Shown here one piece after another: positions 3,428 through 49,467 of a DNA stretch of 64,000 nucleotides (positions within the stretch are counted from its first letter, which is position 1; every line of letters starts with the position of its first letter). The stretch lies in sequence record NC_052657.1, one strand, 5' to 3'. Position numbers and translations under genes: made by a program. The DNA is from Escherichia phage muut. Below the pieces are notes generated by a model. That model made no database searches. It was not told the origin of the DNA and worked only from the letters and a program-made list of their open reading frames with translations.

Positions 3428-3770
3428 CGTATTTGATCTGTCAGGTTTAGATATGGAAAAAGCAACCCTGTATCATCACGATAAAGATAACATTACGTAC
3501 ATCTACATCGGAGCAGATAAATATAACATTCCTGAAAACTCCTTGGCAGTAGCGAAGAAAGGGAATATGCCTTTGCAAGAGAAGATGATTGGTTTTTCCT
3601 TTCGTCAAGATGTTAAGCTGGATGGCGTTATTGCTATCTTCCAGGTGGACGAGTTTTATATGGTTACTTTTGTCACACCAAATTTCACCAATATCAATGG
3701 GGAAGAGGCAGCAAACGATGTTATTGTTCTAAATTTGGGTAATGCCTTAAAAGATTTAGAAAACGTTTAA
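3405..3770 (+). CDS. hypothetical protein
   Basis: In-frame ATG 3405 with GGGAGG RBS (ORF track start 3330 is probably too early). Confidence 0.45.
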   Translation: MKTTQEINVFDLSGLDMEKATLYHHDKDNITYIYIGADKYNIPENSLAVAKKGNMPLQEKMIGFSFRQDVKLDGVIAIFQVDEFYMVTFVTPNFTNINGEEAANDVIVLNLGNALKDLENV

Positions 3771-3791
3771 TAAACCAATAAGGAAAATATA

Positions 3792-4307
3792 ATGTTTTTT
3801 GATGCTCAATCTCCACTTGTTGACTCTGTAAGCAGAGCGGTAATATACCCAGACTTTGATGAAAGAGAAATATGGCTTAAGGAACACCACTATGATCCAG
3901 AAAATGTCAACTGGTGTAATCTGGATGTTGGTAAGTATCCGCGAGATAAGGGCATCTTGAAATATTATGCTTGCTACACGGTGGATAACATCTATGAATA
4001 CTACGTGTTTCGTAGTTTGATTATCCATCTAAATAAATTGGGTGCTCTAACAGGGGATTCTCAATTCACTCTAGGCCACTATAAACCATTTAAAAAAGGT
4101 GGAGAGCACTTTCCAAGCAATTGGATTATACAAACATTAAAAGATAATTCTCGTGCTAGTGATGTTATACCGGACAAAAAAGAAAAGTGGACATGGCATG
4201 AGCAAATGGAGTATATTATACAACATATGCCACAACGTGTATTGTACGAGGAAAAGTTGGTCAACCGTTGTGCCGAGTTAATACAAATTGTTAAGGGGTT
4301 TTACTAG
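3792..4307 (+). CDS. hypothetical protein
   Basis: 171 aa ORF, AGGAAA RBS. Confidence 0.55.
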   Translation: MFFDAQSPLVDSVSRAVIYPDFDEREIWLKEHHYDPENVNWCNLDVGKYPRDKGILKYYACYTVDNIYEYYVFRSLIIHLNKLGALTGDSQFTLGHYKPFKKGGEHFPSNWIIQTLKDNSRASDVIPDKKEKWTWHEQMEYIIQHMPQRVLYEEKLVNRCAELIQIVKGFY

Positions 4308-4315
4308 GGGGAAAT

Positions 4316-4792
4316 ATGTCTAAACGTTTTGGTCGTAATCAAAAAAGAAAGTTAAGTGCTCAACTAGCAGCTTTGCAAAAAGAGGTTAACACTTTACAAA
4401 AAAGTGTTTGTGAACTTAAGGAACAAAACCAACTTGAAAAAGAGTGTATCCAGCTTACACAGGAAGTTATTGGTGAGTATTTTCCTTCACTAGTTCCTAA
4501 GAAGGTGGCTCTTAGGGAAAATCTACCTTTTACCTTGTCCTTGATGCAAGCAAATAATAGATTCCAAACTGAAACTGATGATTTGATGTTTGCAATGCAT
4601 CAATTACATGGTTTAGAATATACAGCACAAGTGGATAAACTTCGTAACATGTTATATGTGCGGGTAGAAACACCTAAAGGTGAGACAGTAGCTTTTAATT
4701 ATAATTTCCAACAGCTACCTGATCATATTATTGAACAAATTTTAAAACGAGATTTTGTTCCTATGCTTGTTAAACAAATTAAGAGAGGTTGA
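4316..4792 (+). CDS. hypothetical protein with coiled-coil N-terminus
   Basis: 158 aa ORF. Confidence 0.55.
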   Translation: MSKRFGRNQKRKLSAQLAALQKEVNTLQKSVCELKEQNQLEKECIQLTQEVIGEYFPSLVPKKVALRENLPFTLSLMQANNRFQTETDDLMFAMHQLHGLEYTAQVDKLRNMLYVRVETPKGETVAFNYNFQQLPDHIIEQILKRDFVPMLVKQIKRG

Positions 4793-35608: not shown

Positions 35609-36340
35609 ATGAGCGAATTTGTAAACAACACCGCATTAAACTACCTGCAAACCCTCGAAAGCAATAGTGTAGATTTGATTCTTACTGACCCACCATATGC
35701 TATTTCTCGTGACACAAATTTTCAGTCTGGAGAGCCTACTGGAAAAGATACGGATAGATTCCGTGTATCTTACAACTTCGGTGATTGGGATGTTGTAGAT
35801 ATTCCTTACTTTAAAGAAGTATTCAAAGAAGCCTACAGGGTGCTTAGAAAAGGTGGTACTTGCATAGTTTGGTATGATATCTGGAAGATCCAGGAACTAC
35901 GTGAAATCCTTGAACCGCTTGGTTTTCGTATGTTCCGTACCATCGAATGGATTAAAACAAACCCTGTACCCATCAACAGTGGTGTTAACTACCTTAGTAA
36001 CGCTAAAGAGATGGCTATTGTTTGTGTTAAAGGTTCGAAACCAACCTTCAATGCTTCCTACCATAAGGGTGTGTTTGAGTATCCTATCTATCAAGGAGCA
36101 GATCGTTTTCATCCAACACAAAAACACTTGACTTTGTTTTGTGACCTTATTAATATACACACCAACGAAGGAGATGTAGTCTTAGACTTCTTCTCTGGAA
36201 GTGCAACAACACAAGTTGCGGCACTTTTAACAGGTAGAGAATACTTAGGCTGTGAAGCCGATGTAAATATTTTTAAGCAAGCGGAGGAACGACTAAATGA
36301 GTACACTGAACAGCAAAATCACCCTGAAAGCACTGATTAA
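35609..36340 (+). CDS. DNA methyltransferase (N6-adenine or N4-cytosine, beta class)
   Basis: DPPY motif (ILTDPPYAI) ahead of AdoMet-binding VLDFFSGSATT. Confidence 0.75.
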   Translation: MSEFVNNTALNYLQTLESNSVDLILTDPPYAISRDTNFQSGEPTGKDTDRFRVSYNFGDWDVVDIPYFKEVFKEAYRVLRKGGTCIVWYDIWKIQELREILEPLGFRMFRTIEWIKTNPVPINSGVNYLSNAKEMAIVCVKGSKPTFNASYHKGVFEYPIYQGADRFHPTQKHLTLFCDLINIHTNEGDVVLDFFSGSATTQVAALLTGREYLGCEADVNIFKQAEERLNEYTEQQNHPESTD

Positions 36341-36728
36341 CAATGGTATGAACCTGGACTCTGGTCTGTCTCCAAAGATTTCTATGGCACGACTGGAACA
36401 AGTTACTGGTCTTCGTCAAGTAAGTAATGGCGGTAAGATTATTCGTGATGACGCTGTACCTTTTAATAAGTTTCAGATTGAACGTCATTACGATCCTGTA
36501 ACTGCAAGCCTCACTGGTGTAACTTTCTCAGGTTATCGTACTGCCGGATACCAGCGTAAAGTTGTAGCTGAACGTATTAAGAGTCGCAAACAGAAAATTG
36601 CGACATTGAAGAAACTGGTAGAGAAAGATGTTTCAGAACTTCTTAACCTGTATGAAACTCTTGAGACAAAAGGTGAAGATCATAAACTCTTCTCTAAAGA
36701 AGATGTAAGCGTAATTTTCACTGATTAA
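36297..36728 (+). CDS. hypothetical protein
   Basis: 143 aa ORF overlapping the methyltransferase 3' end. Confidence 0.4.
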   Translation: MSTLNSKITLKALINNGMNLDSGLSPKISMARLEQVTGLRQVSNGGKIIRDDAVPFNKFQIERHYDPVTASLTGVTFSGYRTAGYQRKVVAERIKSRKQKIATLKKLVEKDVSELLNLYETLETKGEDHKLFSKEDVSVIFTD

Positions 36729-36735
36729 GATAAAA

Positions 36736-36765
36736 GAAAAGGAGCCTAATGGCTCCTTTTTGTTT
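36736..36765. terminator. bidirectional terminator between convergent + and - transcription units
   Basis: AAAAGAAAA AGGAGCC-TAAT-GGCTCCT TTTTGTTT; A tract and T tract flank the hairpin. Confidence 0.7.
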
Positions 36766-38650
36766 ATGTAACATTGACTGTAAATCTGACAAGAGGTGAT
36801 AACACGTCATTATCAGCATCATAGTGTGCAACATCAAACACTGTTGTACCTGCTGCAAATCCATATTGTTCAACCTGATCTGCATAAGTAAATGTGTAAG
36901 TGTTAGTATCCAGGGTTTGTTCTGTAAGAATTGCTGCTGTGAGGACGTTTACATTTCGGAAGTAATGTTTAGTATATCCTGCTGGTTCCCAAGAGACAAT
37001 TGCATCTTGGTTAGCTTGTCTTACAGCGGCTCCTCCTGTTGGAACAGACATATCAACCCAAACAGGTGACGCTGATGTTAAGTCTGTACCGTCTGCTGCC
37101 GATTTAGCAAGTTTTGTAGCTGCTGTTTGATATACAGAAGAAATATAATGGATACGACCATCAATACCTTCTTCATAAACATAACCACTGTAACGTTCAG
37201 CACCATCTACCCAAGAACCAATTATAACATCATCACGTGCTGTAGAGATGGTTCTTTGTACATTTCTGTACTTCTGCCAATCCACACCATTAACTTCTAC
37301 ACCATATAAATAAGAACGTCCTAGGATCTGCCAAACAATTTTTGCTTGAGAAGCAGGAACTATTGTACGCATCTTATCAAAGATAGCTATCGTAGCATCA
37401 TGGTAACGTGTAGTGTTACTGTACCTACCTGCAACAGTCGAAGATGCTGATACAGCATCATTTTCACCTTGTCCCCAAATAATTGCTTTAACCTTACTTG
37501 CATAAGGTGTGACTTTAGTGATAAAGTTAGTTAAGCATGGCCCATCTGCTGTGTTATCCAGATCATACCAGTAGTTGTCTGGTGTTCCTGTTCCGGCTTT
37601 ATCATCTGCATATTTATCTGCTGCTGATGATCCAGAAGCTGCATTTAACGGAAGAACTTCAGCATTTGCTAAACCACGTTGCGTAGCATATGCATTACGG
37701 GCTGTTGTGCTACTCATTGCTGCTTTATTTGCACCAGATAGTTCTGTAAAGTGTGCATTTACGTTATCTTGTCCAGCAAAGACAATAACTTCTTTAATGA
37801 ATGAATCATCTGTAGCTATTGAGCTATTAAAGATAACGGCTGCTGCTTTGGTGCTCTTAACGCTAATTTTAAGGTATGTTGGAGCAAACCCATAAAGAGG
37901 AATAGAGTCAGAGATATCAAAGTAGGCGTAAGTATTTGTGGTTGTTGTAGTCCACTGGACACTATTATCACTTAAATCTAATACTTCTACAGTATAAGTA
38001 TCACCATCTAGCGGATCAGTTACATCCCAAGCAACACGAACGTCTCCATAACTGTTTGCCACGGCTGTTACATTAGAAATAACAGGAATAGCATTAACAC
38101 CTAAATAAGAACTATCAGAGGCCACAACTGTTCCTTGATACGTTGCAGTACAACCTATACGGCAATTGCCATCTTTAAGAGCAGTTATTAATCCTGTAGG
38201 GCTTACAGTAGCTACTTCTGGATCTGTTGTGGTGTATGTAATTACCATATCTGGAAGGTCTTTAGCACCTTCTGGACTGATTGTAGCAACCAACTGTTGA
38301 GTAGTGCCTACATCCATAGCCGATAGACTTTCAGTGTACACACTTAATTCTGAAGCATAACCACCAGATTGATCAGTTAAGACAGCACCTAAATTATTTT
38401 TAGCTGTCATTATTGCATCAAAACCACCTTCGGCAACAAACTCCATCATACCACTATTATCTATAACCATTTTGGTATTATCTGAAGATGAAAAAGCTAT
38501 ATCAAATAACGCACCATCTTCGGGTGTAACTGTGTATGTCAGTTGTTTTTTACTACCAACTATGGCAATACCAATAGAGGAAGTAGTTATAGATGTAGCT
38601 GTTACTACTGAAGCTGATGTTGTTGACATAAATAAAGGAATAGGATACAT
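36764..38650 (-). CDS. tail fibre / receptor-binding protein with SGNH-type esterase domain
   Basis: 628 aa; VIVFAGQDNVN and IIWGQGENDA resemble sialate O-acetylesterase/SGNH blocks. Confidence 0.5.
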   Translation of the reverse strand: MYPIPLFMSTTSASVVTATSITTSSIGIAIVGSKKQLTYTVTPEDGALFDIAFSSSDNTKMVIDNSGMMEFVAEGGFDAIMTAKNNLGAVLTDQSGGYASELSVYTESLSAMDVGTTQQLVATISPEGAKDLPDMVITYTTTDPEVATVSPTGLITALKDGNCRIGCTATYQGTVVASDSSYLGVNAIPVISNVTAVANSYGDVRVAWDVTDPLDGDTYTVEVLDLSDNSVQWTTTTTNTYAYFDISDSIPLYGFAPTYLKISVKSTKAAAVIFNSSIATDDSFIKEVIVFAGQDNVNAHFTELSGANKAAMSSTTARNAYATQRGLANAEVLPLNAASGSSAADKYADDKAGTGTPDNYWYDLDNTADGPCLTNFITKVTPYASKVKAIIWGQGENDAVSASSTVAGRYSNTTRYHDATIAIFDKMRTIVPASQAKIVWQILGRSYLYGVEVNGVDWQKYRNVQRTISTARDDVIIGSWVDGAERYSGYVYEEGIDGRIHYISSVYQTAATKLAKSAADGTDLTSASPVWVDMSVPTGGAAVRQANQDAIVSWEPAGYTKHYFRNVNVLTAAILTEQTLDTNTYTFTYADQVEQYGFAAGTTVFDVAHYDADNDVLSPLVRFTVNVT

Positions 38651-38663
38651 TTAATCTCCTTAA

Positions 38664-38688
38664 ACAATAAGCCCCCGAAGGGGCTTTG
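38664..38688 (-). terminator. rho-independent terminator (UUCG tetraloop)
   Basis: On - strand AAGCCCC-TTCG-GGGGCTT then ATTGTTT; same core as 17514-17536. Confidence 0.55.
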
Positions 38689-38689
38689 A

Positions 38690-40651
38690 TTATGTGCGTT
38701 TAGCAACAATAGCATCCACGTAATCACCAACACCACAATATGTTAGTTGTAGTATTGTTACTCCGTTAGGATCTGTATTAATATCACTAGAACCAATTAC
38801 TTTGTAAGATGGATCTAAAGTAACAGTACGACCCCCAGTGGCATCTTGGATAAGATAAACTATTGCAGAGAATGGTTTAGGTTTTGTGCTATCTTCGACA
38901 CCAGGCCATGCTTTTATAGTAGAGTTACCAGTAAGATTCAACACATTCATGTTATGTGTTCCTGGAGGTGTCCAGTCCCCTGTAACAGATTTGTTGGTGT
39001 ATGCTGTAACCTCTATAAAATTAGTTGTTACTTTTGTTGGAACTATATCTTGACCATCTACAGAACTAGTGAGTTCTTCCCATGCTCCATCTTTACGAGC
39101 ATAGATTTTACCATCACTAGGTGCATCTGTGATGCTAGGTAGTGTACCTTGAGAAGTCCAGACAGTTGCAGATGTTTTTAAGAACACCTCGCCAGTGGAG
39201 ATATTAAAGGCATAATCCCCTTGTTTACCATCACTAGAGATTGGATCTGTTGTTTTAACAATCCAAGTTGCACCATCCGTACCGTTAGTACCAGCGTCAC
39301 CTTTCTCACCCTTATCACCTTTCAAGCTACCCATATCTACATATTCAGCAGTTTGAGTTTGTTCATCATAGGTGTAAATGTAAAGATGACCTGTATCTTC
39401 CGTCAGATAAGCATCACCGTAATTGGATGTAGGAGGAAGTGCACTTGCAGACGCAACGTGTCCTTTTGCAGTGATTGGAGTACCAGCTAAACGACCAACA
39501 TTTGTCCACTGTGTGGCTCCTTGCAACCAAACCCAAAGTTCATTATTGATCAGATAACCATCACCATCTTCTCCAGTTTGTGGTAGTTCAGAAGTGTCAG
39601 TCAGAATATCAATAATGGTCAACCCTGCACCAGTTGGCCCCGTCAAGCCTTGTATACCCTGCTCACCTTGATCACCCTTGTCTCCCTTATCACCTTTTTC
39701 TCCTTTCAGAGAGGCAATATATTCGTCAATAGTACCAACGTTACCAGCGTTTAACCAGACTTGATAAGCTGAATCACCAGTGTTACCCTTATCTCCTTTG
39801 TCGCCTTTATCTCCTTTTGGCCCCACTATAGCGCCCATATTGATCCATTCTACACCGTTTGACACGTATAGATATGTACCAATACTCCATGCTTGAGATG
39901 TGTTTCCAGGAGATGCAGAAGGAAGATCTGAAACGGAATTAGCTGCACCTTGGTAATCAAAACCATTAGCATTGTTACCTGGCACACCTTGTGGCCCCTC
40001 TGGGCCAGGCTCCCCTTTATCACCTTTAATTGAAGCAAGATAATCTAGTTCTGTACCTTGGTTTCCTGCTGCAAGCCAAACTTGATAAGCTGATTTACCT
40101 TCTGGCCCCTGTGAGTTTACTTTTCTCCAAGCAGTACCATCCCAAGCATACATATTCTCGCCTACAATCCATGCATCTCCTGCATTGTTTCCAGTTGTAG
40201 GTAATTGGTTGGTATTAGATAGCGTCCCTAGCAGCTTTAATGGAGCACCTGGATCACCTTTTAAAGAAGCCAACCAGTCTGTCTCAGTGCCTTGGAAACC
40301 ATTGTCTACGGCAATCTGGTAAGCTGATTTACCAGCTTCTGGAATGGATTCTCTAAGATCTTCAATTTCAGCTTCAATAGCATCTAATTCTGATTCTATT
40401 TGAGCAATGTCATCTGCATTACCCACATTTTTCCAAGCTGTATCTGAAATCCCTCCAGTAGATGTAGGAGTAGAGTTAGCAGGTACAACTTTAGGTAGAG
40501 AACCTTTCCACTGATAGTAGTTACCGTCAGTTTCAAAGAGCAATGCTTCACGAGCATCTCTTAAGGTAAAACCACTTGCAAAACTTCTACGCTTTCTATA
40601 GCGAGACTCTACCATGTCTGCAATGGCACTATTTGGACGTGTTAAAATCAC
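38690..40651 (-). CDS. tail fibre protein with collagen-like Gly-X-Y repeats
   Basis: 653 aa; KGDKGDKGDKGNTG, KGEKGDKGDKGDQGEQGIQG, GEPGPEGPQG; recurring SAYQVW..G..GT..YxASxKG modules. Confidence 0.65.
   Translation of the reverse strand: MILTRPNSAIADMVESRYRKRRSFASGFTLRDAREALLFETDGNYYQWKGSLPKVVPANSTPTSTGGISDTAWKNVGNADDIAQIESELDAIEAEIEDLRESIPEAGKSAYQIAVDNGFQGTETDWLASLKGDPGAPLKLLGTLSNTNQLPTTGNNAGDAWIVGENMYAWDGTAWRKVNSQGPEGKSAYQVWLAAGNQGTELDYLASIKGDKGEPGPEGPQGVPGNNANGFDYQGAANSVSDLPSASPGNTSQAWSIGTYLYVSNGVEWINMGAIVGPKGDKGDKGDKGNTGDSAYQVWLNAGNVGTIDEYIASLKGEKGDKGDKGDQGEQGIQGLTGPTGAGLTIIDILTDTSELPQTGEDGDGYLINNELWVWLQGATQWTNVGRLAGTPITAKGHVASASALPPTSNYGDAYLTEDTGHLYIYTYDEQTQTAEYVDMGSLKGDKGEKGDAGTNGTDGATWIVKTTDPISSDGKQGDYAFNISTGEVFLKTSATVWTSQGTLPSITDAPSDGKIYARKDGAWEELTSSVDGQDIVPTKVTTNFIEVTAYTNKSVTGDWTPPGTHNMNVLNLTGNSTIKAWPGVEDSTKPKPFSAIVYLIQDATGGRTVTLDPSYKVIGSSDINTDPNGVTILQLTYCGVGDYVDAIVAKRT
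39625..39835 (-). repeat. collagen-like triplet repeat block inside tail fibre gene
   Basis: Runs of GGn-GAy-AAr codons (GDKGDKGDKG) seen as CCTTTATCTCC repeats on + strand. Confidence 0.6.
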
Positions 40652-40666
40652 TTTACTACTCCTTTT

Positions 40667-40690
40667 ATAAAGGGGCTTTCGCCCCTTTTT
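40667..40690 (-). terminator. rho-independent terminator (GAAA tetraloop)
   Basis: On - strand AGGGGC-GAAA-GCCCCT then TTTAT; same core as 30747-30766. Confidence 0.5.
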
Positions 40691-40692
40691 AA

Positions 40693-43107
40693 TTAAGCAT
40701 TATTGACAGTAACAAAAGTAACAGGGTTCAGAGCTTTAATTTGTGTATTCTCTGCTGTAGGTGTTACAATTGGATCTGCAATATCTATTGTGTACAAACT
40801 ATTTGTCACGTATGTAGCACGTGCTATAGTTGTCACAAGATCGCCGCCATTTGCACCTGCACCTGGAATAACAATCTTAGTACCTGCTGCTTTAGCGTAG
40901 CCATTACTAGCCCAGTTTAAAGCATTAGACTGTAGATAGGTTTGACCTGTAACAGTTGCTTTTATTTTCTCGTTGGCACTAAAGAAAGCACCACCTACTG
41001 TAACAACATGTTTTTTACCGCTTGCACAATGAATAACTGTTCCAGTAGGGAATTCACGCCCACCTGGGAATTCATCATAAGCTGTAAAATATTGTTCAGA
41101 AATAGTAGTTAAAACTGGCCCACGATGACCTGTACCATCAACAGCAGTTGGAACACCAAAGTTATTTCCAACCTGATCGCAACGATCCGTGTAGATTTTA
41201 GCAAAAGAAACTGTTGTTTCATCTCCGCTAAGTGCTGTACATCCTACCCACTTCATATACGTGAATTGGCTGCGAGTATAGAAACCGCCACCACTTCCTT
41301 CTCCGCTTCCATGTTGACCAATAAAGTCAATACTACGGCAACGAATATTATTAAAGGTAGAGCTAGATGGTAGTCCACGCCATTTAAAAACATTACAATT
41401 GATATTACTAACAATTGTAGAGTTTTCCCAGGCATCTGATCCAGATGTTGCAATCTCAATTGAAGATTCTGGAATATCCAAATTCTTAATTGTAAAGTTA
41501 ATTGGTGGCCCCGCATATCTGCCACTGTTAACACCCCAATCAATAAAGACCATGCGTGTTGAAACAGACGGATCATTAAGCAGATAACCAGTTAAACCAT
41601 CAACTTCAAAATCTTGGCATCCGTATAATGCAACACCACAAGTAGTTAAACCTGTACCTGTTGAAACTGCTGTGTTAGGATAAACTTCATTATCACGTAT
41701 TGTGAAGTTTTTACCCATTTCAACGTGTAAACATTGACGGCAATTGTAAACCCTATTCCCAACGATACTGAAGTTACGTACATATTGTGAATCAGGAACA
41801 TCAACACCATATGGGCCACTACCTGCTACACCAATACCAATACCCCAGTTTGCACCTTGTCCAGAAGCATCTACGTTAGCAATGTGGTTATTCTCGATAA
41901 TCAAACCTTCAGTGTAGTGTTTTTGAACTACGTTAAGTTCAATAGCATCACCTTTGATATCGTGAATATAGTTGTTAGAGTAACGCCCGTAGGTCATTAC
42001 TTCTCCAGTACCTTGTTGCAGGATCGCATATTTACAACCATACATTTCGTTGTAACTGAAGTCCAACGTACCTTCACTTGTCATTGCTTGCATTAAGAAT
42101 GCTGCTGTAGATGTTGCGTTGGAGAAGATATTACGATAGAATCGGCAATCACCACCTAACATCTTAACATAACATTTTTCAAAGCGAACGTTTTCCATCC
42201 AACAGGACACAGTAGAAATCATTGTTCCACCGTTACCAGTGAATGTACCTCCATACCAACGAATACCAGACATAGCAATTGAGCTTGTGAATCTATAATT
42301 CTTATCTGCACGTACTTGAATGTTATTCGTGTTAGCGAAAGTAATGGTTTTTAAAATTGCTTGAGTATCATCGGTAACTCCATCACCAATTGCACCAAAC
42401 TGCTCAGGCGTTACAAAGTATTGAGCTTGTAACAGGTTGCCTCCAGATGGAAGACCAACCATTGCTGCACCAGTGGTAGATGACAAAAGGTTTTTCTCTA
42501 CGTAAGAAGTAGAGGCTGTTGTTTTACCAATAAAAGCAAACAATTTGTTAGGTAGACCAGTAGACGGATCTAAACCTAATGGTTCTGCCAGAATAATTTT
42601 ACTATCTTTGATAGTAAATGCTTCACCTTGAATCTGAATTACACCGTTAATGGTGACAATAGCATTATCAAAGATATAAGGAGGACTGATTTCTGTTTCG
42701 TATCCTGTAGCACCTTTAAAATACCAAGGATACACATCTGAAGCTAACTGTTCAGTTTTAAGAGCGTACAGAGTCCAGTTACTGTCTCCTACAGGTGTAC
42801 CCTGCATAGGTACAGGGTTCGCAGTAGTGGCAGATGGGGCATAATAGTACCCACTCAAGATACCGTTTTCAAAATAACGTAACTGGTTAAATACAGTTTC
42901 AGTTGATCCTGCTGACCAAGCAACAGGACTCTTAAAGAAGAAGTTATCAACAAGTGCTTTACGCAGTGTAGGTATTAAACCTGTTTCGGTTTCTACAGTT
43001 GCTGTAGCATCTCCATTAATAACATCATGCATCTGGTTAGACGAGAATATAACCAGATCAACACCTTGTTCTAGTGTCGTAGCAGGATATGTTGGAAAAT
43101 TCGCCAT
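40693..43107 (-). CDS. tailspike with right-handed beta-helix (depolymerase-like)
   Basis: 804 aa; periodic Asn/Gly/Val-rich rungs (IENNHIANVDASG, VGNRVYNCRQC, IRDNEVY). Confidence 0.5.
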   Translation of the reverse strand: MANFPTYPATTLEQGVDLVIFSSNQMHDVINGDATATVETETGLIPTLRKALVDNFFFKSPVAWSAGSTETVFNQLRYFENGILSGYYYAPSATTANPVPMQGTPVGDSNWTLYALKTEQLASDVYPWYFKGATGYETEISPPYIFDNAIVTINGVIQIQGEAFTIKDSKIILAEPLGLDPSTGLPNKLFAFIGKTTASTSYVEKNLLSSTTGAAMVGLPSGGNLLQAQYFVTPEQFGAIGDGVTDDTQAILKTITFANTNNIQVRADKNYRFTSSIAMSGIRWYGGTFTGNGGTMISTVSCWMENVRFEKCYVKMLGGDCRFYRNIFSNATSTAAFLMQAMTSEGTLDFSYNEMYGCKYAILQQGTGEVMTYGRYSNNYIHDIKGDAIELNVVQKHYTEGLIIENNHIANVDASGQGANWGIGIGVAGSGPYGVDVPDSQYVRNFSIVGNRVYNCRQCLHVEMGKNFTIRDNEVYPNTAVSTGTGLTTCGVALYGCQDFEVDGLTGYLLNDPSVSTRMVFIDWGVNSGRYAGPPINFTIKNLDIPESSIEIATSGSDAWENSTIVSNINCNVFKWRGLPSSSTFNNIRCRSIDFIGQHGSGEGSGGGFYTRSQFTYMKWVGCTALSGDETTVSFAKIYTDRCDQVGNNFGVPTAVDGTGHRGPVLTTISEQYFTAYDEFPGGREFPTGTVIHCASGKKHVVTVGGAFFSANEKIKATVTGQTYLQSNALNWASNGYAKAAGTKIVIPGAGANGGDLVTTIARATYVTNSLYTIDIADPIVTPTAENTQIKALNPVTFVTVNNA

Positions 43108-43448
43108 TAATTTTTGTCCTTACTTTGTGTGCGCTTTGTAATCTCCTCTAGCATTAATTGAACAGGAGCATTTTTTAAATCCATTATTTTTTCAATCTTC
43201 TGTTCTAAGGCAGTATTATTTGCCATTAATGTAGAGTTGATCTGGTTAAGCATTTGAGCAAGTTCTGCTTTGGTAGCATAAGTGGATTCAACAAACACCA
43301 ACTTCTTTTCTAGTTCGCGGTATTTGTCTTCCATTTTATCCAAATCACTTGCCATATCATCTATCTTCTGTTTGAAGACCACCCAGATTACGCCAATAAG
43401 AGGGATAATCGCCTCTTTAGCGATATCCCATACTTCTGTTAGCTCCAT
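43107..43448 (-). CDS. membrane-anchored coiled-coil protein (i-spanin-like or fibre accessory)
   Basis: 113 aa; N-terminal TM (IIPLIGVIWVVF) then coiled coil. Confidence 0.3.
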   Translation of the reverse strand: MELTEVWDIAKEAIIPLIGVIWVVFKQKIDDMASDLDKMEDKYRELEKKLVFVESTYATKAELAQMLNQINSTLMANNTALEQKIEKIMDLKNAPVQLMLEEITKRTQSKDKN

Positions 43449-43457
43449 ACATTGCCC

Positions 43458-44009
43458 CTATTTCTTAGGTCTTGTAGGCCAAGTTATATTAGGTGCATCT
43501 TCAACGTTAATTTGAATTAATGTTGCACGATAGAGTTTAACTTTTCCTAACCAATCTTTTTGTTCTTCAGATAAACCTTGTAATTCCTCTAAATCTTGAA
43601 TCGCAGACACTTGATTCGTAGCCCAAGTTAGCTCCTTTTCTAACTTAAGAGTAGCATCTTCAATAGCAAGATTATTGTGAGGAACAAACTTACCTTCAAC
43701 ATATTGCCAAGAGCCAATATTACTTTCATCTTCTATTTTATCTGGTACATTATATGTAACTAAAATAGATTGTCCGGCAGGGAAATAGGTAGTAACATCT
43801 TTAGTAGCACCACGTACAATATTATTATCATCTAAGGTAATAAAATAAGCATCTGGATATTCTACCATCAAAGTTTTTTGAAGCTGATACCAGTCGTTAC
43901 CATCTTTGTCTTGCAAAAAACCACCACCAACAGAAAGATAAAGAATATTTTCTTCTGTTAATTCTGGTTCATACAATTCAAAACCTGTAAAAATAACGTC
44001 TTTTTTCAT
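43458..44009 (-). CDS. putative tail fibre assembly protein
   Basis: 183 aa, placed between fibre genes. Confidence 0.3.
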   Translation of the reverse strand: MKKDVIFTGFELYEPELTEENILYLSVGGGFLQDKDGNDWYQLQKTLMVEYPDAYFITLDDNNIVRGATKDVTTYFPAGQSILVTYNVPDKIEDESNIGSWQYVEGKFVPHNNLAIEDATLKLEKELTWATNQVSAIQDLEELQGLSEEQKDWLGKVKLYRATLIQINVEDAPNITWPTRPKK

Positions 44010-44018
44010 AGACTCTCC

Positions 44019-45002
44019 TTACGAAACGTTGGTTACTGTTATCCAGCTACCATTAATATAATATTGTAGCGGAGCTGACCAATACCAAGCACCACGAAGT
44101 TCTTTCTTGTCACCAAAACCCCAACCTGTGATCACGTGACCAGCATAGAAACGAGACTCAGACACACCAGCTTGGATACGTGTTCCAAGACGGATAGCAG
44201 ACACAACAGAAGAAACTCTATTGTTAATGCTATTAATTTGGCCTTGCAAGTTACTATTAACGTTGTTAATATTATTTTGCAGTGTGCTTTGCAATGAGTT
44301 TAGTCTGGAGTTAAGATAGTCTAATCTTACAAGAGCATTACCATTACCAGTATCTTGACCAGAATTAGAACGAGGGTTGTCTATTAAAACATAACCTGCA
44401 TCATATAAACGGACTGCACAAGATGTTCCTCCAGTTGATGGGTTCATTCTATAAATATAGAGTTGACCACCTGCACCTGGTTCAGAGGACATATTACCTA
44501 CTGTTTGTCCGTTGTAGTTTCTAAAAAATAATGTTGCAGGATCTGTAGCACCTGTACCACAGGTATAAATATCGCCTGCATAGATAGCACCACCATTATC
44601 ACGCTTAACAAGGACATTCCCTACAACTTGGTTTGATGTTGCGTCTGTAATGTTAGCTGATAAGTGATTATGGCTGTTATCTACGACTTGAATAGATAAT
44701 GTTACAGCAGCATTACCATTCCATGTAACTTCACCTGTAGCATCACCTGCCATTGTAATTTTAGTACCGACTATAGGAAGATATGTAGTAGGCAATGTTG
44801 GGAAGAATTCATCTTGCATATAGCGAATCCAAGACCCAATATTGTTTAAGATCCAGTTCATTTCTTCACAAGTCATAATCTGACCAAAGTCCATACCAAC
44901 ATTACGGATGGTTTCTTTTGGTCTAATCTTGTTTGTGTTTCCCGTTCCTGGGAGGGTTACTGTTTGTGTCGCCCAGTCAGGGTAGTATTGTGGCTTTGCC
45001 AT
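44019..45002 (-). CDS. tail fibre / baseplate-distal structural protein
   Basis: 327 aa, Asn/Gly/Ser-rich with N-N-x-N-S repeats. Confidence 0.4.
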   Translation of the reverse strand: MAKPQYYPDWATQTVTLPGTGNTNKIRPKETIRNVGMDFGQIMTCEEMNWILNNIGSWIRYMQDEFFPTLPTTYLPIVGTKITMAGDATGEVTWNGNAAVTLSIQVVDNSHNHLSANITDATSNQVVGNVLVKRDNGGAIYAGDIYTCGTGATDPATLFFRNYNGQTVGNMSSEPGAGGQLYIYRMNPSTGGTSCAVRLYDAGYVLIDNPRSNSGQDTGNGNALVRLDYLNSRLNSLQSTLQNNINNVNSNLQGQINSINNRVSSVVSAIRLGTRIQAGVSESRFYAGHVITGWGFGDKKELRGAWYWSAPLQYYINGSWITVTNVS

Positions 45003-45015
45003 TAAGAGTAACTCC

Positions 45016-45645
45016 TTATTCTATTTGAGCTATCAGCATAGTCATTCGCCCTGTATCATCTCCTTCAGCCTCTGTGTAAAGAGAACCTAAACCACCTATA
45101 CCATGAGGTGGAGTTGTGGCATAATAGGAAGTGAAACCAAAGGCTGCACCCGCTTTCGCACCTAAGCGATAACTACTTAGGATCGGGAAAACGTTAAGTA
45201 ACTGTGCTACTGCCTGATCGGATTGTAGACACAAATTATAAAAGAATACGTCGAATGTTTTATTTAATCCAACGTATGTATTAATCGTTTCTTTTTCTGT
45301 TCCTGTAAAACGAGCGAACATATCAATGATATCATCTCGCGTACCAGAAGACGCAACACGATAAGCCCTGATTTTTAATATTGTACGATACTCTTCATCT
45401 GTAGCACCATTTCTTTCCATCCCCATCTCTTCACCAATAAGATCTAAATACTTACCAGTTGCAGTAGAGATTAAGCGGTGTTTGGCAAGATAGATCATTG
45501 CCTGATCTATCTTTTGTTTTTCGCTAGAAATGATATAGAGTAGTTTGACAATGTTCGGAGAAGATTTAAAATCTTCAATCAGTAGGTCTTTAACATCTTC
45601 ATTGATACTATCCCACGTTGTCACATGGTCAACACTCACTGCCAT
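45016..45645 (-). CDS. baseplate structural protein (hypothetical)
   Basis: 209 aa ORF in tail module. Confidence 0.4.
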   Translation of the reverse strand: MAVSVDHVTTWDSINEDVKDLLIEDFKSSPNIVKLLYIISSEKQKIDQAMIYLAKHRLISTATGKYLDLIGEEMGMERNGATDEEYRTILKIRAYRVASSGTRDDIIDMFARFTGTEKETINTYVGLNKTFDVFFYNLCLQSDQAVAQLLNVFPILSSYRLGAKAGAAFGFTSYYATTPPHGIGGLGSLYTEAEGDDTGRMTMLIAQIE

Positions 45646-45647
45646 TT

Positions 45648-47135
45648 TTAGACTCCGTACTCGTAGGAAATATTATCAAGGTCAAAGGATGGTACAACAT
45701 TGTACGCTGGAGTGATATCTCCCTCATTATATTTACTGTCATCCTCAGTATTAAGTTTAACATAAACACGGAGAGAAGTCAAGCGTCCGAACGCAAGTGC
45801 AGAATAAATTACACCTTTTATCTGATCGTTAGTTACTGTTGACCCTAACTCAAAATAAGCCTGTAGATTTGAAAGAGCAGAAACAATATTTTCTCTTTCT
45901 GTTGTACTTAACACACTACCATTGCCAGTTTGATATACTAGTTTAAGTGAATATTCAGCATTGTCACCAGGAGAAAAACGAATTACTTCTTGACCACCAT
46001 CTTCTGTTACGATAGTAATTGCTGTTGTACCATAGGTTAGGGTGTTAATAGGCTTAGTATTATAAATAACCTGTGCAACTTCTTCTGCTGTACCACCATA
46101 CACAATAGTCTGGAATGTCATAGCTGGAGCATGTTCCTGATCATGTAATGTAGGGTTATCATAAATCTTAACCTTTGTCACACCATCTGTCAGTAGCAGA
46201 GCTTTAACAATAGCAGCACGAGTAGCAGCATTAGCTTCATCCATATTATCATTGAAACGAGAACGGAATTCTGCATCTGTTTCAACATCTGTACCTGGAG
46301 AGAATGGATAGAAGTTACCTGTATCTAAAAAGCCTGTAAACGTTGAAGAAATACCTGTGATACTTTCTGTACCTACTGGATTATAACCAACGTCTGAACA
46401 CGTAACTGGAATTTCACTCCATTTTGTACCTATTGCAATAGATGCATAAAATTTCACTGGTGTTACTAGACCTATTGGGTTAACATTATCTTCTGGATTA
46501 TAACCCATGTAAACATTACTAGCATCATTCCATACTAAAGCACGATCTGTTGTTGATACGTTAGCTTTAATGAAATTCGTGAGATCTAAAATAAAGTTTG
46601 TATTGCTAGGACTTAGTGTTTTACTGTTAAGACCACCATCAATAGCACTTTGAATGTAGAAAGTAATAGAAGTTTCACCAGAAGCTGTTGCGTTTGCTTT
46701 AGAAATGGTATATGCTCCAATCTTAGCATTCAACATTGTTGGTGCACTGACATAATATGTCAAATCGTTATCGGCGTTAAAATAAACATCTGTACTTAGC
46801 TCATAAGTCCAAGCTGCCTTATTGTTAGATTTAACATAAGCATAACCACTACCAGCAGAAGCAGCTTTACGATAAAAACCCCTTTTAGAGAAAATTTCAT
46901 CAAGGTAAATACCTTCTGCACCATCTAAGGTTTGGGTATTGTAAACACCTTGCATACCTTCCCAAAGGGTGTAATCTGTATATGCAATAATACGAAACAG
47001 TTGACCAAAGACAGTATCTTCAGATGTAGCTGTATCTGCACCGAAAGTGTTTTTCAATGCTGTCATATAATTATTTAGAATATCATCAAACGTTGGAATG
47101 ACAAAACCAGCATCTGTTAAACCATAATCTGCCAT
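45648..47135 (-). CDS. baseplate wedge structural protein (hypothetical)
   Basis: 495 aa ORF in tail module. Confidence 0.4.
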   Translation of the reverse strand: MADYGLTDAGFVIPTFDDILNNYMTALKNTFGADTATSEDTVFGQLFRIIAYTDYTLWEGMQGVYNTQTLDGAEGIYLDEIFSKRGFYRKAASAGSGYAYVKSNNKAAWTYELSTDVYFNADNDLTYYVSAPTMLNAKIGAYTISKANATASGETSITFYIQSAIDGGLNSKTLSPSNTNFILDLTNFIKANVSTTDRALVWNDASNVYMGYNPEDNVNPIGLVTPVKFYASIAIGTKWSEIPVTCSDVGYNPVGTESITGISSTFTGFLDTGNFYPFSPGTDVETDAEFRSRFNDNMDEANAATRAAIVKALLLTDGVTKVKIYDNPTLHDQEHAPAMTFQTIVYGGTAEEVAQVIYNTKPINTLTYGTTAITIVTEDGGQEVIRFSPGDNAEYSLKLVYQTGNGSVLSTTERENIVSALSNLQAYFELGSTVTNDQIKGVIYSALAFGRLTSLRVYVKLNTEDDSKYNEGDITPAYNVVPSFDLDNISYEYGV

Positions 47136-47380
47136 TAGTTATCCTCCTTATCAGGGGCAGGTGATCTGCCCCAACGTAAATCTATTAAATTCTTCATTAG
47201 TCTGGATGGTGTGATCATAAAAACAAAAGCCCAGCCCATCCATTCAGGAATTTCTTTATCAATTCCCAAATAAATAAACATACTGGACATAACAATCATA
47301 CCAATAGCATTCCAAACTTTAGTAGAACTGACTTTATTATCAGGATATGTACAAAACATACCTATTAAAAATTTTCTCAT
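47135..47380 (-). CDS. small two-TM membrane protein (holin-like)
   Basis: 81 aa, two hydrophobic helices, charged C-terminus. Confidence 0.3.
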   Translation of the reverse strand: MRKFLIGMFCTYPDNKVSSTKVWNAIGMIVMSSMFIYLGIDKEIPEWMGWAFVFMITPSRLMKNLIDLRWGRSPAPDKEDN

Positions 47381-47391
47381 ACTAGAGATCC

Positions 47392-49467
47392 TTAAGAAGA
47401 AACATATACTGTATCTTGTAAAAAGACATTCAGAGGTACGTTACCCATATAAAAAACTTGGGATTTTGAATTAAGAACAGTTAATGAATCTGCCATAATT
47501 TGTGGATAAGCCCATATGTATTGATACAAACCAACAAACTTCTGGTCATTCAATACAATATTACCTATAATCATTTTCCACAAATATGTTCTGTAGTCTG
47601 ATTCAGGATCAAAGCCATATAATGGTGCTAGAGTTGCATCTGGAACAAACCCTGCAAGATAATGTATCTTATCATAACTAAAACCTAGTTGCTCATTAGG
47701 TATTTTAATAGCGTCGAAAGATCTTTCCATCTGACCTTCCAACAACCAGTCATAACATTCTGAACAATAAAAGTCAAAGTTTTCTGGGATATAATAATCT
47801 TTAGGGAAGTTAACAAACTCCATCATACCGTTACCTAAAATGGATGGCACAAATGGTAATAATGTAACTTTAGCCCCAGGATATGCTAATCTAGTATCTG
47901 TTGCAAATTTAGCAACACGCAGTCCTAATGTTTTAGATAGGAATGCATAATATTCATCATATGGTGTACCAGTTTTATAATTCTTAACTGTACCAACATC
48001 TTGTGCATATAATCCAGTTTCATTATTAAATGCAACTTTGGTTGTATAATCATAAATACACGGTAGATTGGTAGCTGTGTTATACCACCACCACGGTTCA
48101 CCAACCTGAATAATAACAGGAAGATCATTGGCAGCGGATATAGAAGCTATCTTATTTATTACACCTTGTAAATAATTCATCCCTTCATCAATTGAAGGAG
48201 ATAAAACATAACTTGGTGGCTCATAACCTGTAGCAGCCAGATCATCATTCCAAGTATGTTGAACCCATTCTACAGGACACACTGTACTCATAAGTTCAAA
48301 ACTTAAGGAGTTCATTACTGTGTAGCCCATAGCTTTTGCATTAGCGTGGAAATTATCAAACCATGCTTCTGTTGCTGGGTTTAAATATTCTGTTCTATTC
48401 AAAACCCATTTATTAGAACCAGCATCCCAACTAAACTGATAATAGTGTGACATACCATTATAATGGTTAATCATATCCCTATAACCTAATCTGTAGGTGT
48501 TAGAAATAACTCGCTCTGGGGTCAGGTTATACATATCATCATAAGATGTACACATTCTTATGGTGTGTGCTGGAACATTTAAATTACCCATATTCATCAT
48601 ACTGTAACCAGTATCAGGCTCCAGTATGGTAAACTTAAAGGAAAGATCCACATTGTCTACAGGAATAATATCTTCAATTTCTTGATACCTTGTGGAGATC
48701 AAGGAGAAGAACATATTATCTATCTGTGTAGTGTCAACAACAATATCATTTTCTGACCCAGATTTTAAATTTGAGAAATCTAATTTTATTGTTGCTGTTT
48801 TACCATCCTCTGAAACTTCTTCTGCATAAAAGTTTAGAGATACATAATGAACTGTTTCATCCTTCAGTGTCACTGTTAAGGATGGCAATAATTTTTCTTC
48901 TTTTAATCCAGGAACACCTTGACTAAGTTCCATTTTAAACCAAAGTTTCTCTTTACTTAAGTCAGAATGTTCTTGGTAGCCTAATCCTTTGTGATCATAT
49001 TTATCGTAAGTTGACCAAATAATCCCAGCAAGACCAGCCACTGTCCTATTAACCATTCTTGCTGTGAAAGAATCACCATTAGAGATAATAGAACAACTTT
49101 CTGTTGCTTGAGAATCTATTGTCCAAAACTTAGGATCAAACATTCTAGACTTCACAACAGGCCAAGTTAGCGGGGTTGTATTCGATTGATCAGTCGTAAT
49201 AACACAACGAATTTCTTCATTGATCATCATGTTATTTTGACTTATGCTAGTAATCTCAAGAGTAAAATAAAGATCTAAAGAGTTTGCCGGACGTTCATAT
49301 ACATCAACCACTACAGTAGCAGAATCTGCATCAGAAGGGAACGTTACTGTTCCCTGTTTAGCTACATAATCTCTACCAGCGACCGCCGTTCCATCGACGG
49401 TCTTATAGCTGAATGAACTGGCATTTACTCTCGTATTTCGAGTTACAGTAAAAATAGCCTGTTTCAT
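47392..49467 (-). CDS. large tail/baseplate structural protein
   Basis: 691 aa ORF. Confidence 0.45.
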   Translation of the reverse strand: MKQAIFTVTRNTRVNASSFSYKTVDGTAVAGRDYVAKQGTVTFPSDADSATVVVDVYERPANSLDLYFTLEITSISQNNMMINEEIRCVITTDQSNTTPLTWPVVKSRMFDPKFWTIDSQATESCSIISNGDSFTARMVNRTVAGLAGIIWSTYDKYDHKGLGYQEHSDLSKEKLWFKMELSQGVPGLKEEKLLPSLTVTLKDETVHYVSLNFYAEEVSEDGKTATIKLDFSNLKSGSENDIVVDTTQIDNMFFSLISTRYQEIEDIIPVDNVDLSFKFTILEPDTGYSMMNMGNLNVPAHTIRMCTSYDDMYNLTPERVISNTYRLGYRDMINHYNGMSHYYQFSWDAGSNKWVLNRTEYLNPATEAWFDNFHANAKAMGYTVMNSLSFELMSTVCPVEWVQHTWNDDLAATGYEPPSYVLSPSIDEGMNYLQGVINKIASISAANDLPVIIQVGEPWWWYNTATNLPCIYDYTTKVAFNNETGLYAQDVGTVKNYKTGTPYDEYYAFLSKTLGLRVAKFATDTRLAYPGAKVTLLPFVPSILGNGMMEFVNFPKDYYIPENFDFYCSECYDWLLEGQMERSFDAIKIPNEQLGFSYDKIHYLAGFVPDATLAPLYGFDPESDYRTYLWKMIIGNIVLNDQKFVGLYQYIWAYPQIMADSLTVLNSKSQVFYMGNVPLNVFLQDTVYVSS

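Follow-up and report, generated by a model that had tools for sequence, protein, structure and literature searches.

The distal tail-fibre genes of a phi92-like Escherichia phage include an SGNH-fold tail protein without the nucleophile serine

The window analysed here, a stretch of 64,000 nucleotides from Escherichia phage muut (NC_052657.1), derives from a Justusliebigvirus, a phi92-like myophage. Three open reading frames lie on its minus strand, at 36764-38650 (gene A), 38690-40651 (gene B) and 40693-43107 (gene C), exactly where the first-pass annotation had placed three receptor-binding proteins; coordinates below refer to the minus strand unless stated otherwise. The genes close a minus-strand structural block on which plus-strand replication genes converge, and the sign of the GC skew flips at about 36-38 kb. 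With positions 36000-47200 as query, 52 records in total reached a coverage of at least 80%; Escherichia phage vB_EcoM_ZYD (ZYD) was 100% identical at the nucleotide level, and the rest of the best 40 of these 52 phage records were 96.7-99.2% identical. The annotation of phage Paula allows the cluster to be matched gene by gene with phi92 gp145-gp155. Genes A to C are the distal end of the phi92-like tail-fibre gene cluster, a well-known "Swiss-army-knife" set in this group of E. coli phages. With a deposited phage identical to the window and a crystal structure available for gene C, the locus is not new; it is ordinary and already described, and the one modest new point is the loss of the nucleophile Ser in gene A.

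Gene C (804 aa, ATG start) is the orthologue of phi92 gp150, a colanidase tailspike. Over residues 180-804 it shares about 99% identity with the solved 'Bacteriophage Phi92 gp150' (PDB 6E0V/6E0W; 1430 bits), which bears out the tailspike first proposed, and the protein matches PHROG 6117 'colanic acid degradation' (E 5e-270). The beta-helix first proposed is putative, the repeat matches in the sequence being weak. Residues 704-792 correspond to TSP_Ig-like (Pfam), and homology to WcaM of the host extends over residues 358-553 (E 6.5e-29). Published work reports that phi92 gp150 cleaves colanic acid, and the gene C product is probably a trimeric tailspike with the activity shown for this near-identical protein. 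At the N-terminus, residues 12-126 (42730-43074) match the fibre chain of phiTE ('putative tail fiber protein' aa 15-130, 9CUY/9MJN; E 9.4e-18), and in the phiTE virion structures the N-terminal parts of the fibres are modelled on the baseplate. This stretch is a putative attachment region, and the N-terminal 130-180 residues probably anchor gene C to the baseplate.

Gene B (653 aa) is a collagen-like fibre gene and the orthologue of phi92 gp151, as also annotated in phage Paula (Phi92_gp151 homologue). It starts with GTG, with AGGAG 7 nt upstream, matches PHROG 15437 'tail fiber protein' over its full length, and has full-length orthologues in Phapecoctavirus at the same genomic position (59% identity). 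The N-terminal Tail_spike_N domain (aa 11-77, 40421-40621; Pfam PF18668, E 3.6e-21) matches the N-terminal domain of solved tailspikes including CBA120 TSP1/3/4 and G7C gp63.1. In the repeat region that follows (39266-40336), the collagen-like tracts and SAYQ modules noticed at first pass were recovered by regular expressions: four Gly-X-Y tracts at aa 210-227, 277-294, 317-343 and 445-462 (6, 6, 9 and 6 triplets) and three SAYQ modules starting at aa 109, 187 and 294, interleaved with 'LPxxG...W' modules. Pfam Collagen scored 32.5 bits against a cut-off of 27.2. A foldon-like motif at aa 502-529 (39065-39148; ...DGKIYARKDGAWEEL...) gave weak matches to Pfam Fibritin_C (E 0.0011; 19.5 bits, under the 21-bit cut-off) and to the T4 fibritin foldon in PDB 8UDN (E 0.052). 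The C-terminal tip domain (aa 531-653, 38693-39061) matches the C-terminus of PHROG 4549 (E 6e-39), and over residues 557-652 it shares about 50% identity with the C-termini of rV5-like tail fibres. The product would be a trimeric fibre that docks through its tailspike-type N-terminal domain and ends in a C-terminal tip of the type common to rV5-like fibres; in the shaft between them, collagen-like triple helices would alternate with small modules, some SAYQ helical and others foldon-like beta-hairpins. The repeats had also been proposed as sites of recombination and host-range change. Their DNA repeat families share just 60-80% mutual identity, and the differences among seven orthologues consist of 26 scattered substituted positions and one Gly-X-Y triplet insertion, present in one of the seven, so that the repeats show no sign of being host-range hot spots.

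Gene A (ATG start) is the short allele, encodes 628 aa and matches PHROG 32204 'tail protein' over its full length. Tandem Ig-like domains (aa 16-188, 38087-38605) are supported by Pfam Big_2 (aa 112-170) and by an all-beta structure model with pLDDT 80-92; the pair is 58% identical to that of the Phapecoctavirus protein in the equivalent genomic slot. An FN3 domain, an SGNH-fold (CE6/SASA-like) domain at about aa 285-522 (37085-37796) and a C-terminal FN3-like domain identified through Foldseek matches to FN3 domains (aa 538-628, 36767-37039) complete the protein. Both an esterase-type fold and the expected tailspike are found in the trio, so that the refuting observation named at first pass does not overturn the finding. 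In BLASTP, residues 192-613 are collinear with FN3, SGNH-like and FN3 domains of N4 gp65 (aa 619-1062); the match to gp65 in the PDB has E 8.6e-24, the structure model aligns with TM 0.80 (Foldseek, E 4e-25), and aa 1082-1276 of gp65 repeat the C-terminal FN3-like domain of gene A. To call this product a fibre was an overstatement, given that an Ig/FN3/SGNH chain like the monomeric N4 gp65 is no obvious trimeric fibre. The protein would rather resemble beads on a string, in which a short conserved N-terminus and the five domains succeed one another and the distal half is homologous to the C-terminal part of gp65, the receptor-binding 'sheath' protein of N4.

A hairpin lies downstream of all three genes, as first described, but only the last one is convincing as a terminator. 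The hairpin after gene C (40669-40688; AAAGGGGC-GAAA-GCCCCUUU; dG -17.9 kcal/mol, z -4.1) has a stem followed by only three U and was not flagged by the terminator scan, and that after gene B (38669-38686; AAGCCCC-UUCG-GGGGCUU) is terminator-like in the scan, with dG -13.3 and z -1.8, 13 of 200 shuffles being equally stable. The hairpin after gene A (36737-36760) also serves ORF 36297-36728, which converges on it from the plus strand, was picked up on both strands (minus, dG -17.4, z -5.6; plus, dG -20.6, z -6.4) and is an annotated terminator in phage Paula. The terminator-like consensus was found only in the hairpins after genes B and A, and the number of scan hits in the region, 6 against 5.6 expected, is not above chance. 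Genes A, B and C are probably co-transcribed late, the two small hairpins acting at most as attenuators or RNA stabilisers and the one after gene A as a genuine bidirectional terminator.

The trio is present as proposed, but three is an undercount of the receptor-binding genes in the block, which also holds homologues of phi92 gp147, gp142 and gp141. A gp147-like short tail fibre (44019-45002) and its gp148-like chaperone (43458-44009) were recognised through PHROG 4465 and 136 and Pfam Caudo_TAP; in phi92, cryo-EM led to the assignment of gp147 to fibre III. The gp142-like protein (47392-49467) carries Calx-beta, NCTSP_N and a TIM barrel (Pfam PF23845, E 7.6e-82; PF23844, E 3.4e-21), is 30% identical to N4 gp64 (E 2e-32) and also matches the gp65 N-terminus; this gene, 9 kb upstream, holds the half of the N4 gp64/gp65 domain set that gene A lacks. 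The large gp141-like fibre protein (49476-52352, 958 aa) had no Pfam match and is annotated as a Phi92_gp141 homologue in Paula.

Comparison of the locus across about 59 relatives, as the first-pass annotation had suggested, revealed variation in gene A but almost none in genes B and C; besides gene A, a tailspike slot farther upstream is where real variation is found. Gene A occurs as the short allele, as a long allele with 311 additional residues, and as disrupted copies in phi92, where a 218-nt deletion shifts the frame, and in Salmonella phage UAB_1. These two disruptions indicate that gene A is dispensable on at least some hosts. Its product was not seen in the cryo-EM maps of phi92, in which the gene is disrupted.

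The esterase assigned to gene A at first pass is confirmed in its fold but not in its catalytic residue. Codon GAT at 37766-37768 places Asp295 at the position of the family nucleophile Ser (GQSN to GQDN), and because it differs from AGT at two bases a sequencing slip is not the explanation. Ser is found here in 44 of 58 aligned homologous domains, a count that omits gene A itself, and Asp in all of the 35 closest proteins, out of 36, in which the motif pattern was matched (GQDN/GGDN). Homologues at 44-46% identity have Ser or Ala, and distant and second-copy domains Val, Met or Leu, a spread expected once catalysis no longer constrains the site; the second, best-aligned domain of N4 gp65 likewise has no nucleophile Ser. 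Block III (WGQGENDA) and His501 are kept, yet the His is replaced by Gln in two of four homologues of about 42-46% identity. Gene A homologues match Pfam SASA, and the gene A protein itself gave no match to SASA or GDSL. It is unlikely, in our view, that gene A is an active O-deacetylase that would act on a surface glycan (O-antigen, colanic acid or NGR) like gp63.1 of phage G7C, as assumed at first pass and in the GenBank records of phages ALITA and KMB37 ('tail carbohydrate esterase' is among the annotators' wordings). The clear SGNH/CE6-SASA fold, the retained residues and the invariant block I Asp, which suggests functional importance, speak for such an enzyme, but with the SGNH-defining Ser missing throughout the clade the label describes the fold only and esterase activity is doubtful. 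With Asp invariably in place of this Ser, and with a catalytic His that varies within the nearest clade, the domain is most likely glycan-binding, and would bind an (acetylated) surface glycan without hydrolysing it. The strict conservation of Asp could alternatively reflect a non-canonical catalytic role instead of lost function.

One may also speculate that gene A encodes an Ig-domain protein that decorates the tail or baseplate in an accessory role, adhering weakly and non-specifically to glycans or mucus, so that infection is possible without it. The N-terminal Big_2 domains are nearest to siphophage major tail protein and 'structural protein with Ig domain' families, phi92 and UAB_1 are viable with a broken copy, and no trimerisation motif was found in the gene A sequence or model. 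The homology of the distal half to a receptor-binding protein makes this improbable, as does the position in a fibre cluster slot whose distal modules are exchangeable across the subfamily (Phapecoctavirus has an RCC1-like propeller there, and the long allele its 311-aa extra module), which is typical of host-recognition proteins; gene A is moreover intact in about 50 of 59 matching records. Still less probable is that gene B encodes a head or neck fibre and not a baseplate fibre. In the 2026 phi92 study, neither gp150 nor gp151, as predicted, was a good fit to any of the three resolved fibre densities; predicted gp151 was a poor fit to all baseplate fibre densities and resembled gp52, a 'head spike' of phage Pa223. 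The foldon-like and collagen-like elements are reminiscent of T4 fibritin, a neck fibre. The tailspike-type N-terminus, common in tail-attached spikes, the tip common with rV5-like tail fibres and the conserved synteny between two tail genes argue for a tail fibre.

The branched, multivalent adsorption apparatus read from the modular layout is one for which this phage family is known; that of phi92 (gp141-gp151) has been known since 2012 (Schwarzer et al. 2012). Taking the proposed gene roles together, it is likely that the distal fibre cluster encodes three different proteins of such an apparatus that recognise the host surface. For the products of genes A and B, we infer the oligomeric state and the attachment sites.

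Gene set and order are as in phi92 and other Justusliebigvirus phages (96-100% nucleotide identity), gene C corresponding to the crystallised gp150 and gene B to gp151. In phi92, however, gene A is split into gp152 and gp153, whereas the window has the intact short allele, and the variable tailspike slot between gp142 and gp144 holds the endosialidase gp143, whereas here it holds no gene. Gene B shares Gly-X-Y triple-helix tracts with collagen-like phage fibres and a C-terminal hairpin motif with the T4 fibritin foldon, but its tracts are short and broken by SAYQ and hairpin modules, and its foldon match lies under the Pfam threshold.

The CE6/SASA-type SGNH carbohydrate esterases (PF03629; 1ZMB, 2APJ, NanS 3PT5) have the same block III (QGExD) as gene A but the Ser of GQSN where gene A has Asp, and gene A, unlike its homologues, falls below any Pfam SASA score. 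In G7C, the esterase tailspike gp63.1 is trimeric and has an active Ser as its nucleophile. Gene A has neither the Ser nor a sign of trimerisation, and the Tail_spike_N domain common to gp63.1 and gp66, the partners of the branched G7C complex (PDB 4QNL), is found on gene B and not on gene A. With the 'non-contractile sheath' heterodimer gp64/gp65 of N4 (PDB 9LC0, 9YF4), gene A shares the collinear distal part of gp65 at only about 22% identity; it has a single SGNH-like domain, against two in gp65, and a different N-terminus with Ig-like domains. The gp142-like protein corresponds to the gp65 N-terminus plus gp64 (NCTSP_N and TIM barrel), so that in the window two genes lying 9 kb from each other divide the domain set between them, in a myophage baseplate cluster instead of a podophage tail sheath. 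A requirement for wecB/nfrB, and hence for the NGR glycan pathway, is common to phi92-like phages and N4.

The three open reading frames (ORFs) of the receptor-binding locus lie on the minus strand exactly where the first-pass annotation had placed them: gene A at 36764-38650 (628 aa), gene B at 38690-40651 (653 aa, with a GTG start codon preceded by AGGAG) and gene C at 40693-43107 (804 aa). The multivalent apparatus of several distinct receptor-binding proteins suggested for them agrees with the published 'Swiss army knife' of phi92-like phages, but counting three fibre or spike genes was too low, since the cluster holds at least six. The original observation is accurate, while specific interpretive points need correction. 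The phage carries the phi92-type multi-receptor toolkit, which is the source of the unusually broad host range of phi92-like phages, has uses in phage therapy and engineering, and has been on record since 2012. What is added here is modest: gene A, annotated as 'esterase', probably lacks canonical esterase action; it is a candidate for the missing half of a receptor-binding unit like that of phage N4 gp65; and within the trio it is gene A that is polymorphic, not the collagen-like fibre.

The locus is not categorically new: a genome already deposited matches the region exactly, and a crystal structure exists for one of the three proteins. Over positions 36000-47200 the identity is 100% to Escherichia phage vB_EcoM_ZYD and 96.7-99.2% to the other phage records among the top 40 matches listed, and 52 records in total reach a query coverage of at least 80%. 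The matching records are those of phi92-like phages (genus Justusliebigvirus, subfamily Stephanstirmvirinae). In the curated annotation of phage Paula the neighbourhood maps gene by gene to phi92 gp141-gp159, with gene C as gp150, gene B as gp151 and gene A as a 'putative tail component protein'. Some database labels deviate from this picture. The ZYD record (PQ110661) is filed under Vequintavirinae/Vequintavirus although the phage is a Justusliebigvirus; it annotates gene B from an internal ATG (641 aa) instead of the GTG with its good ribosome-binding site, and labels the gp142-like gene 'capsid and scaffold' and the short fibre 'tail sheath protein'. Four records named 'Campylobacter phage A150/C3/A110a/A145' (MG065639, MG065656, MG065689, MG065645) are about 98.7% identical to the locus, and their host labels look doubtful.

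Genes A, B and C form the end of a minus-strand structural block. On the plus strand, genes for replication and modification (DNA polymerase, methyltransferase) run towards this block, and the GC skew changes sign where the two converge. The last plus-strand ORF (36297-36728, 143 aa, phi92 gp154-like) shares 44 nt, in a different frame, with the end of the methyltransferase gene (35609-36340, plus strand). At the other side of the trio, the fibre chaperone gene and the colanidase gene are separated by a small gp149-like ORF (43107-43448, minus strand, 113 aa), whose first base overlaps the final base of the gene upstream and which gives weak PHROG matches to lipoprotein and Rz-like spanin families. 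A promoter scan yielded no excess over shuffled sequences (31 found, 25.9 expected).

A terminator hairpin of its own had been assigned to each of the three genes. A hairpin does follow each of them, but a clear terminator follows gene A alone. The hairpin after gene C (40669-40688, minus strand; AAAGGGGC-GAAA-GCCCCUUU, dG -17.9, z -4.1) is trailed by just three U and then A, too little for a terminator, and was left unflagged by the terminator scan. The one after gene B (38669-38686, minus strand; AAGCCCC-UUCG-GGGGCUU, dG -13.3) was flagged by the scan and is borderline, with a z of merely -1.8. Ribosome-binding sites lie directly behind these two hairpins, where read-through with attenuation or RNA stabilisation would be more likely than full termination. 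The hairpin after gene A (36737-36760) has a stem of 10-11 bp, U-runs on both strands, dG values of -17.4 and -20.6 and z values of -5.6 and -6.4, and qualifies as a bidirectional terminator. The convergent ORF shares it, and the Paula annotation marks it as a terminator.

On the strength of its sequence, gene C is identified as the orthologue of the crystallised and enzymatically characterised colanidase tailspike gp150 of phi92. Residues 180-804 share about 99% identity with 'Bacteriophage Phi92 gp150' in PDB entries 6E0V/6E0W (1430 bits and a handful of substitutions against 6E0V chain A), the gene occupies the same genomic position as the gp150 gene in the Paula annotation, and PHROGs returns 'colanic acid degradation' with an E-value of 5e-270. 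According to experiments cited in a 2026 phi92 paper, gp150 cuts colanic acid at its beta-1,4 glucose-fucose bond. The central domain (aa 358-553) is homologous to WcaM, a protein of the Escherichia coli colanic-acid biosynthesis cluster (E 6.5e-29), and the enzyme module may thus be host-derived or shared. Residues 12-126 match the N-terminal end of a fibre chain modelled in the virion map of phage phiTE (E 9.4e-18), so a role in baseplate attachment is suggested for this end, and the C-terminus is a Pfam TSP_Ig-like domain. The identity of gene C as a tailspike holds. Profile searches for its beta-helix gave weak matches only (para_beta_helix, E 0.081; Pect-lyase_RHGA_epim, E 0.037). We take 6E0V to be a beta-helix, and the right-handed parallel beta-helix fold of gene C is assumed from that structure. 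The central domain, used as a query against PDB sequences, matched 6E0V alone, with no other beta-helix relatives, and papers citing 6E0V gave no description of its fold.

The description of gene B as a collagen-like fibre with Gly-X-Y tracts and SAYQ modules proved right. Three SAYQ modules start at aa 109, 187 and 294, four uninterrupted Gly-X-Y tracts comprise 6, 6, 9 and 6 triplets, 'LPxxG...W' modules are interleaved among them, and the Pfam Collagen family (PF01391) is matched with 32.5 bits against a cut-off of 27.2. The N-terminus is formed by the Pfam domain Tail_spike_N (PF18668, cut-off 25 bits), matched with 75.5 bits and E 3.6e-21; in a PDB search it matches solved tailspikes including CBA120 TSP1/3/4 and G7C gp63.1. 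This domain and published statements on phi92 are the pointers to a possible branched complex of the CBA120/G7C type, in which dedicated N-terminal domains would let one spike dock onto another. A foldon-like motif, DGKIYARKDGAWEEL, scores 19.5 bits with Pfam Fibritin_C, under the 21-bit cut-off, and E 0.052 against the foldon peptide 8UDN. At the C-terminus, the tip shares about 50% identity with the ends of rV5-like tail fibres, and a full-length orthologue with 59% identity occupies the same position in Phapecoctavirus.

Assigning gene A to an esterase family required an indirect route. Its only Pfam match is the Ig-like Big_2 domain; profile searches of Pfam and NCBIfam returned no esterase family, and Pfam SASA (PF03629) did not match the protein at E <= 0.01. 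Since gene A itself matched no such family, the link was made through homologues and is transitive: eight of ten distant homologues tested score above the SASA cut-off. Among PDB sequences, gene A matched the 'non-contractile tail sheath' gp65 of phage N4 (phmmer E 8.6e-24, four matched stretches). A first, full-length structure model built on 10 aligned sequences had a pLDDT of 30-50 in the esterase region and was discarded for that domain. The second, covering aa 271-628 and built on 40 homologues from an exhaustive search, reached a pLDDT of 95.7 and a pTM of 0.91. Searched with Foldseek, this model found N4 gp65 (TM 0.80) and then many GDSL/SGNH esterases, and its last 90 residues matched FN3 domains. 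The modelled region has the three-layer alpha/beta/alpha SGNH fold, and on this point the first-pass annotation, which had staked its claim on an esterase fold being found, was borne out.

The fold is thus that of an esterase, but the catalytic nucleophile is replaced. Among 63 homologous domains aligned to gene A, 58 align at the nucleophile column of block I, where the family consensus is AGQSNAxGHF and 44 of the 58 carry Ser. Gene A reads FAGQDN, with an Asp codon (GAT) at the nucleophile position in place of the serine of GDS or GQSN. The motif pattern was matched in 35 of the 36 closest proteins, some with only 42-46% identity, and all 35 have Asp; Ser or Ala is found at this position in relatives at 44-46% identity. 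The nucleophile Ser is likewise missing from the second SGNH-like domain of N4 gp65, the best collinear match to gene A. Block III (WGQGENDA) and the block V histidine (His501) are present, and the latter is Gln in two of the four clade members at 42-46% identity. These residues suggest that gene A, though annotated as 'esterase', is probably unable to act as a canonical one, and that it most likely carries an esterase-derived domain with a binding and not a cleaving role. As the Asp is strictly conserved, an unusual, non-canonical esterase chemistry reflected in this residue is conceivable, though we regard it as improbable. Of the 'SGNH esterase fibre' proposed for gene A, the fold stands, the esterase activity is doubtful, and the fibre gives way to what looks like a monomeric module of the gp65 type.

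Gene A is also where the locus varies. Across 59 records matching 36297-40700, genes B and C are essentially invariant and gene A is polymorphic: about 23 have the short 628-aa form found here, and about 27 a long 939-aa form with 311 extra C-terminal residues, a module without a Pfam match. This module, at 3768-4700 of the Paula sequence (L002), is absent from the window after 36764; the deletion or insertion has a clean junction at ...NVT, and both alleles are followed by the same terminator. In phi92, the gene has lost its first FN3 domain to a 218-nt frameshifting deletion and is annotated as two genes, gp152 and gp153 (region 1068-2730 of the phi92 sequence, L003), so that structural work on phi92 cannot show the gene A protein. 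Salmonella phage UAB_1 has a larger deletion. In the same slot, Phapecoctavirus Mt1B1_P17 encodes a protein with the same N-terminus (MFPIPIF vs MYPIPLF) and Ig pair (58% identity), an inserted RCC1-like propeller and a C-terminus unlike that of gene A. Variation also occurs between gp142 and gp144, in a tailspike slot that is empty here (47135-47392) and filled in many relatives. This slot holds the endosialidase gp143 in phi92, and two-piece matches reveal insertions of 2-3 kb in many relatives. Given these two variable slots, modular exchange in the cluster is real, and it takes place there and not at the collagen repeats. The proposal that the repeats of gene B are sites of recombination and host-range change was rejected: the DNA repeats are short and merely 60-80% identical, and seven orthologues keep the same architecture with 26 scattered substituted positions, the sole length change being one extra KGE triplet in phage PD06.

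The comparison with N4 places gene A in a wider context. N4 gp65, the receptor-binding protein of that phage, is collinear at aa 619-1062 with aa 192-613 of gene A (BLASTP E 6e-15 over 462 columns), and the homology spans the SGNH-like and FN3 domains. Two parts of the N4 sheath unit, NCTSP_N and the TIM barrel, are absent from gene A but present in the gp142-like protein (47392-49467, minus strand), which combines Calx-beta, NCTSP_N and the 'non-contractile tail sheath' TIM barrel (PF23845, E 7.6e-82; PF23844, E 3.4e-21) and is 30% identical to N4 gp64 (E 2e-32). Whereas the barrel is split between gp65 and gp64 in N4, the gp142-like protein holds it complete. A link between gene A and the C-terminal part of gp65 was not found in the literature consulted, and is implicit in some automatic annotations ('non-contractile tail sheath', PHROG 15324).

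Maffei et al. and Sellner et al. described a 'glycan deacetylase' fibre common to N4 and the Vequintavirinae/phi92-like (rV5-like) phages, and homology to gp64 indicates that the gp142-like TIM-barrel protein is probably that fibre. One may tentatively propose, as a possibility still open to considerable doubt, that gene A is a pseudo-esterase, a CE6/SASA fold that has lost its nucleophile and now serves as a lectin, and that together with the gp142-like protein it would be the myophage counterpart of the N4 gp64/gp65 unit. The hypothesis of such a lectin, related to the receptor-binding protein of N4, is modest and testable, and the three additions made here open cheap, concrete tests of NGR glycan recognition by Justusliebigviruses. 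If the proposed unit is real, the short, long and disrupted alleles of gene A would tune the receptor use of a given Justusliebigvirus. An association of the long allele with NGR use, an idea from the Eryne report, was considered separately and is not supported, because the short-allele phages outra, arall, ESCO9 and ESCO32 were isolated on K-12 or DH5alpha. Both N4 and phi92-like phages need wecB/nfrB, that is, the NGR glycan, and a split module shared between them would explain their common dependence on the NGR glycan/Nfr pathway.
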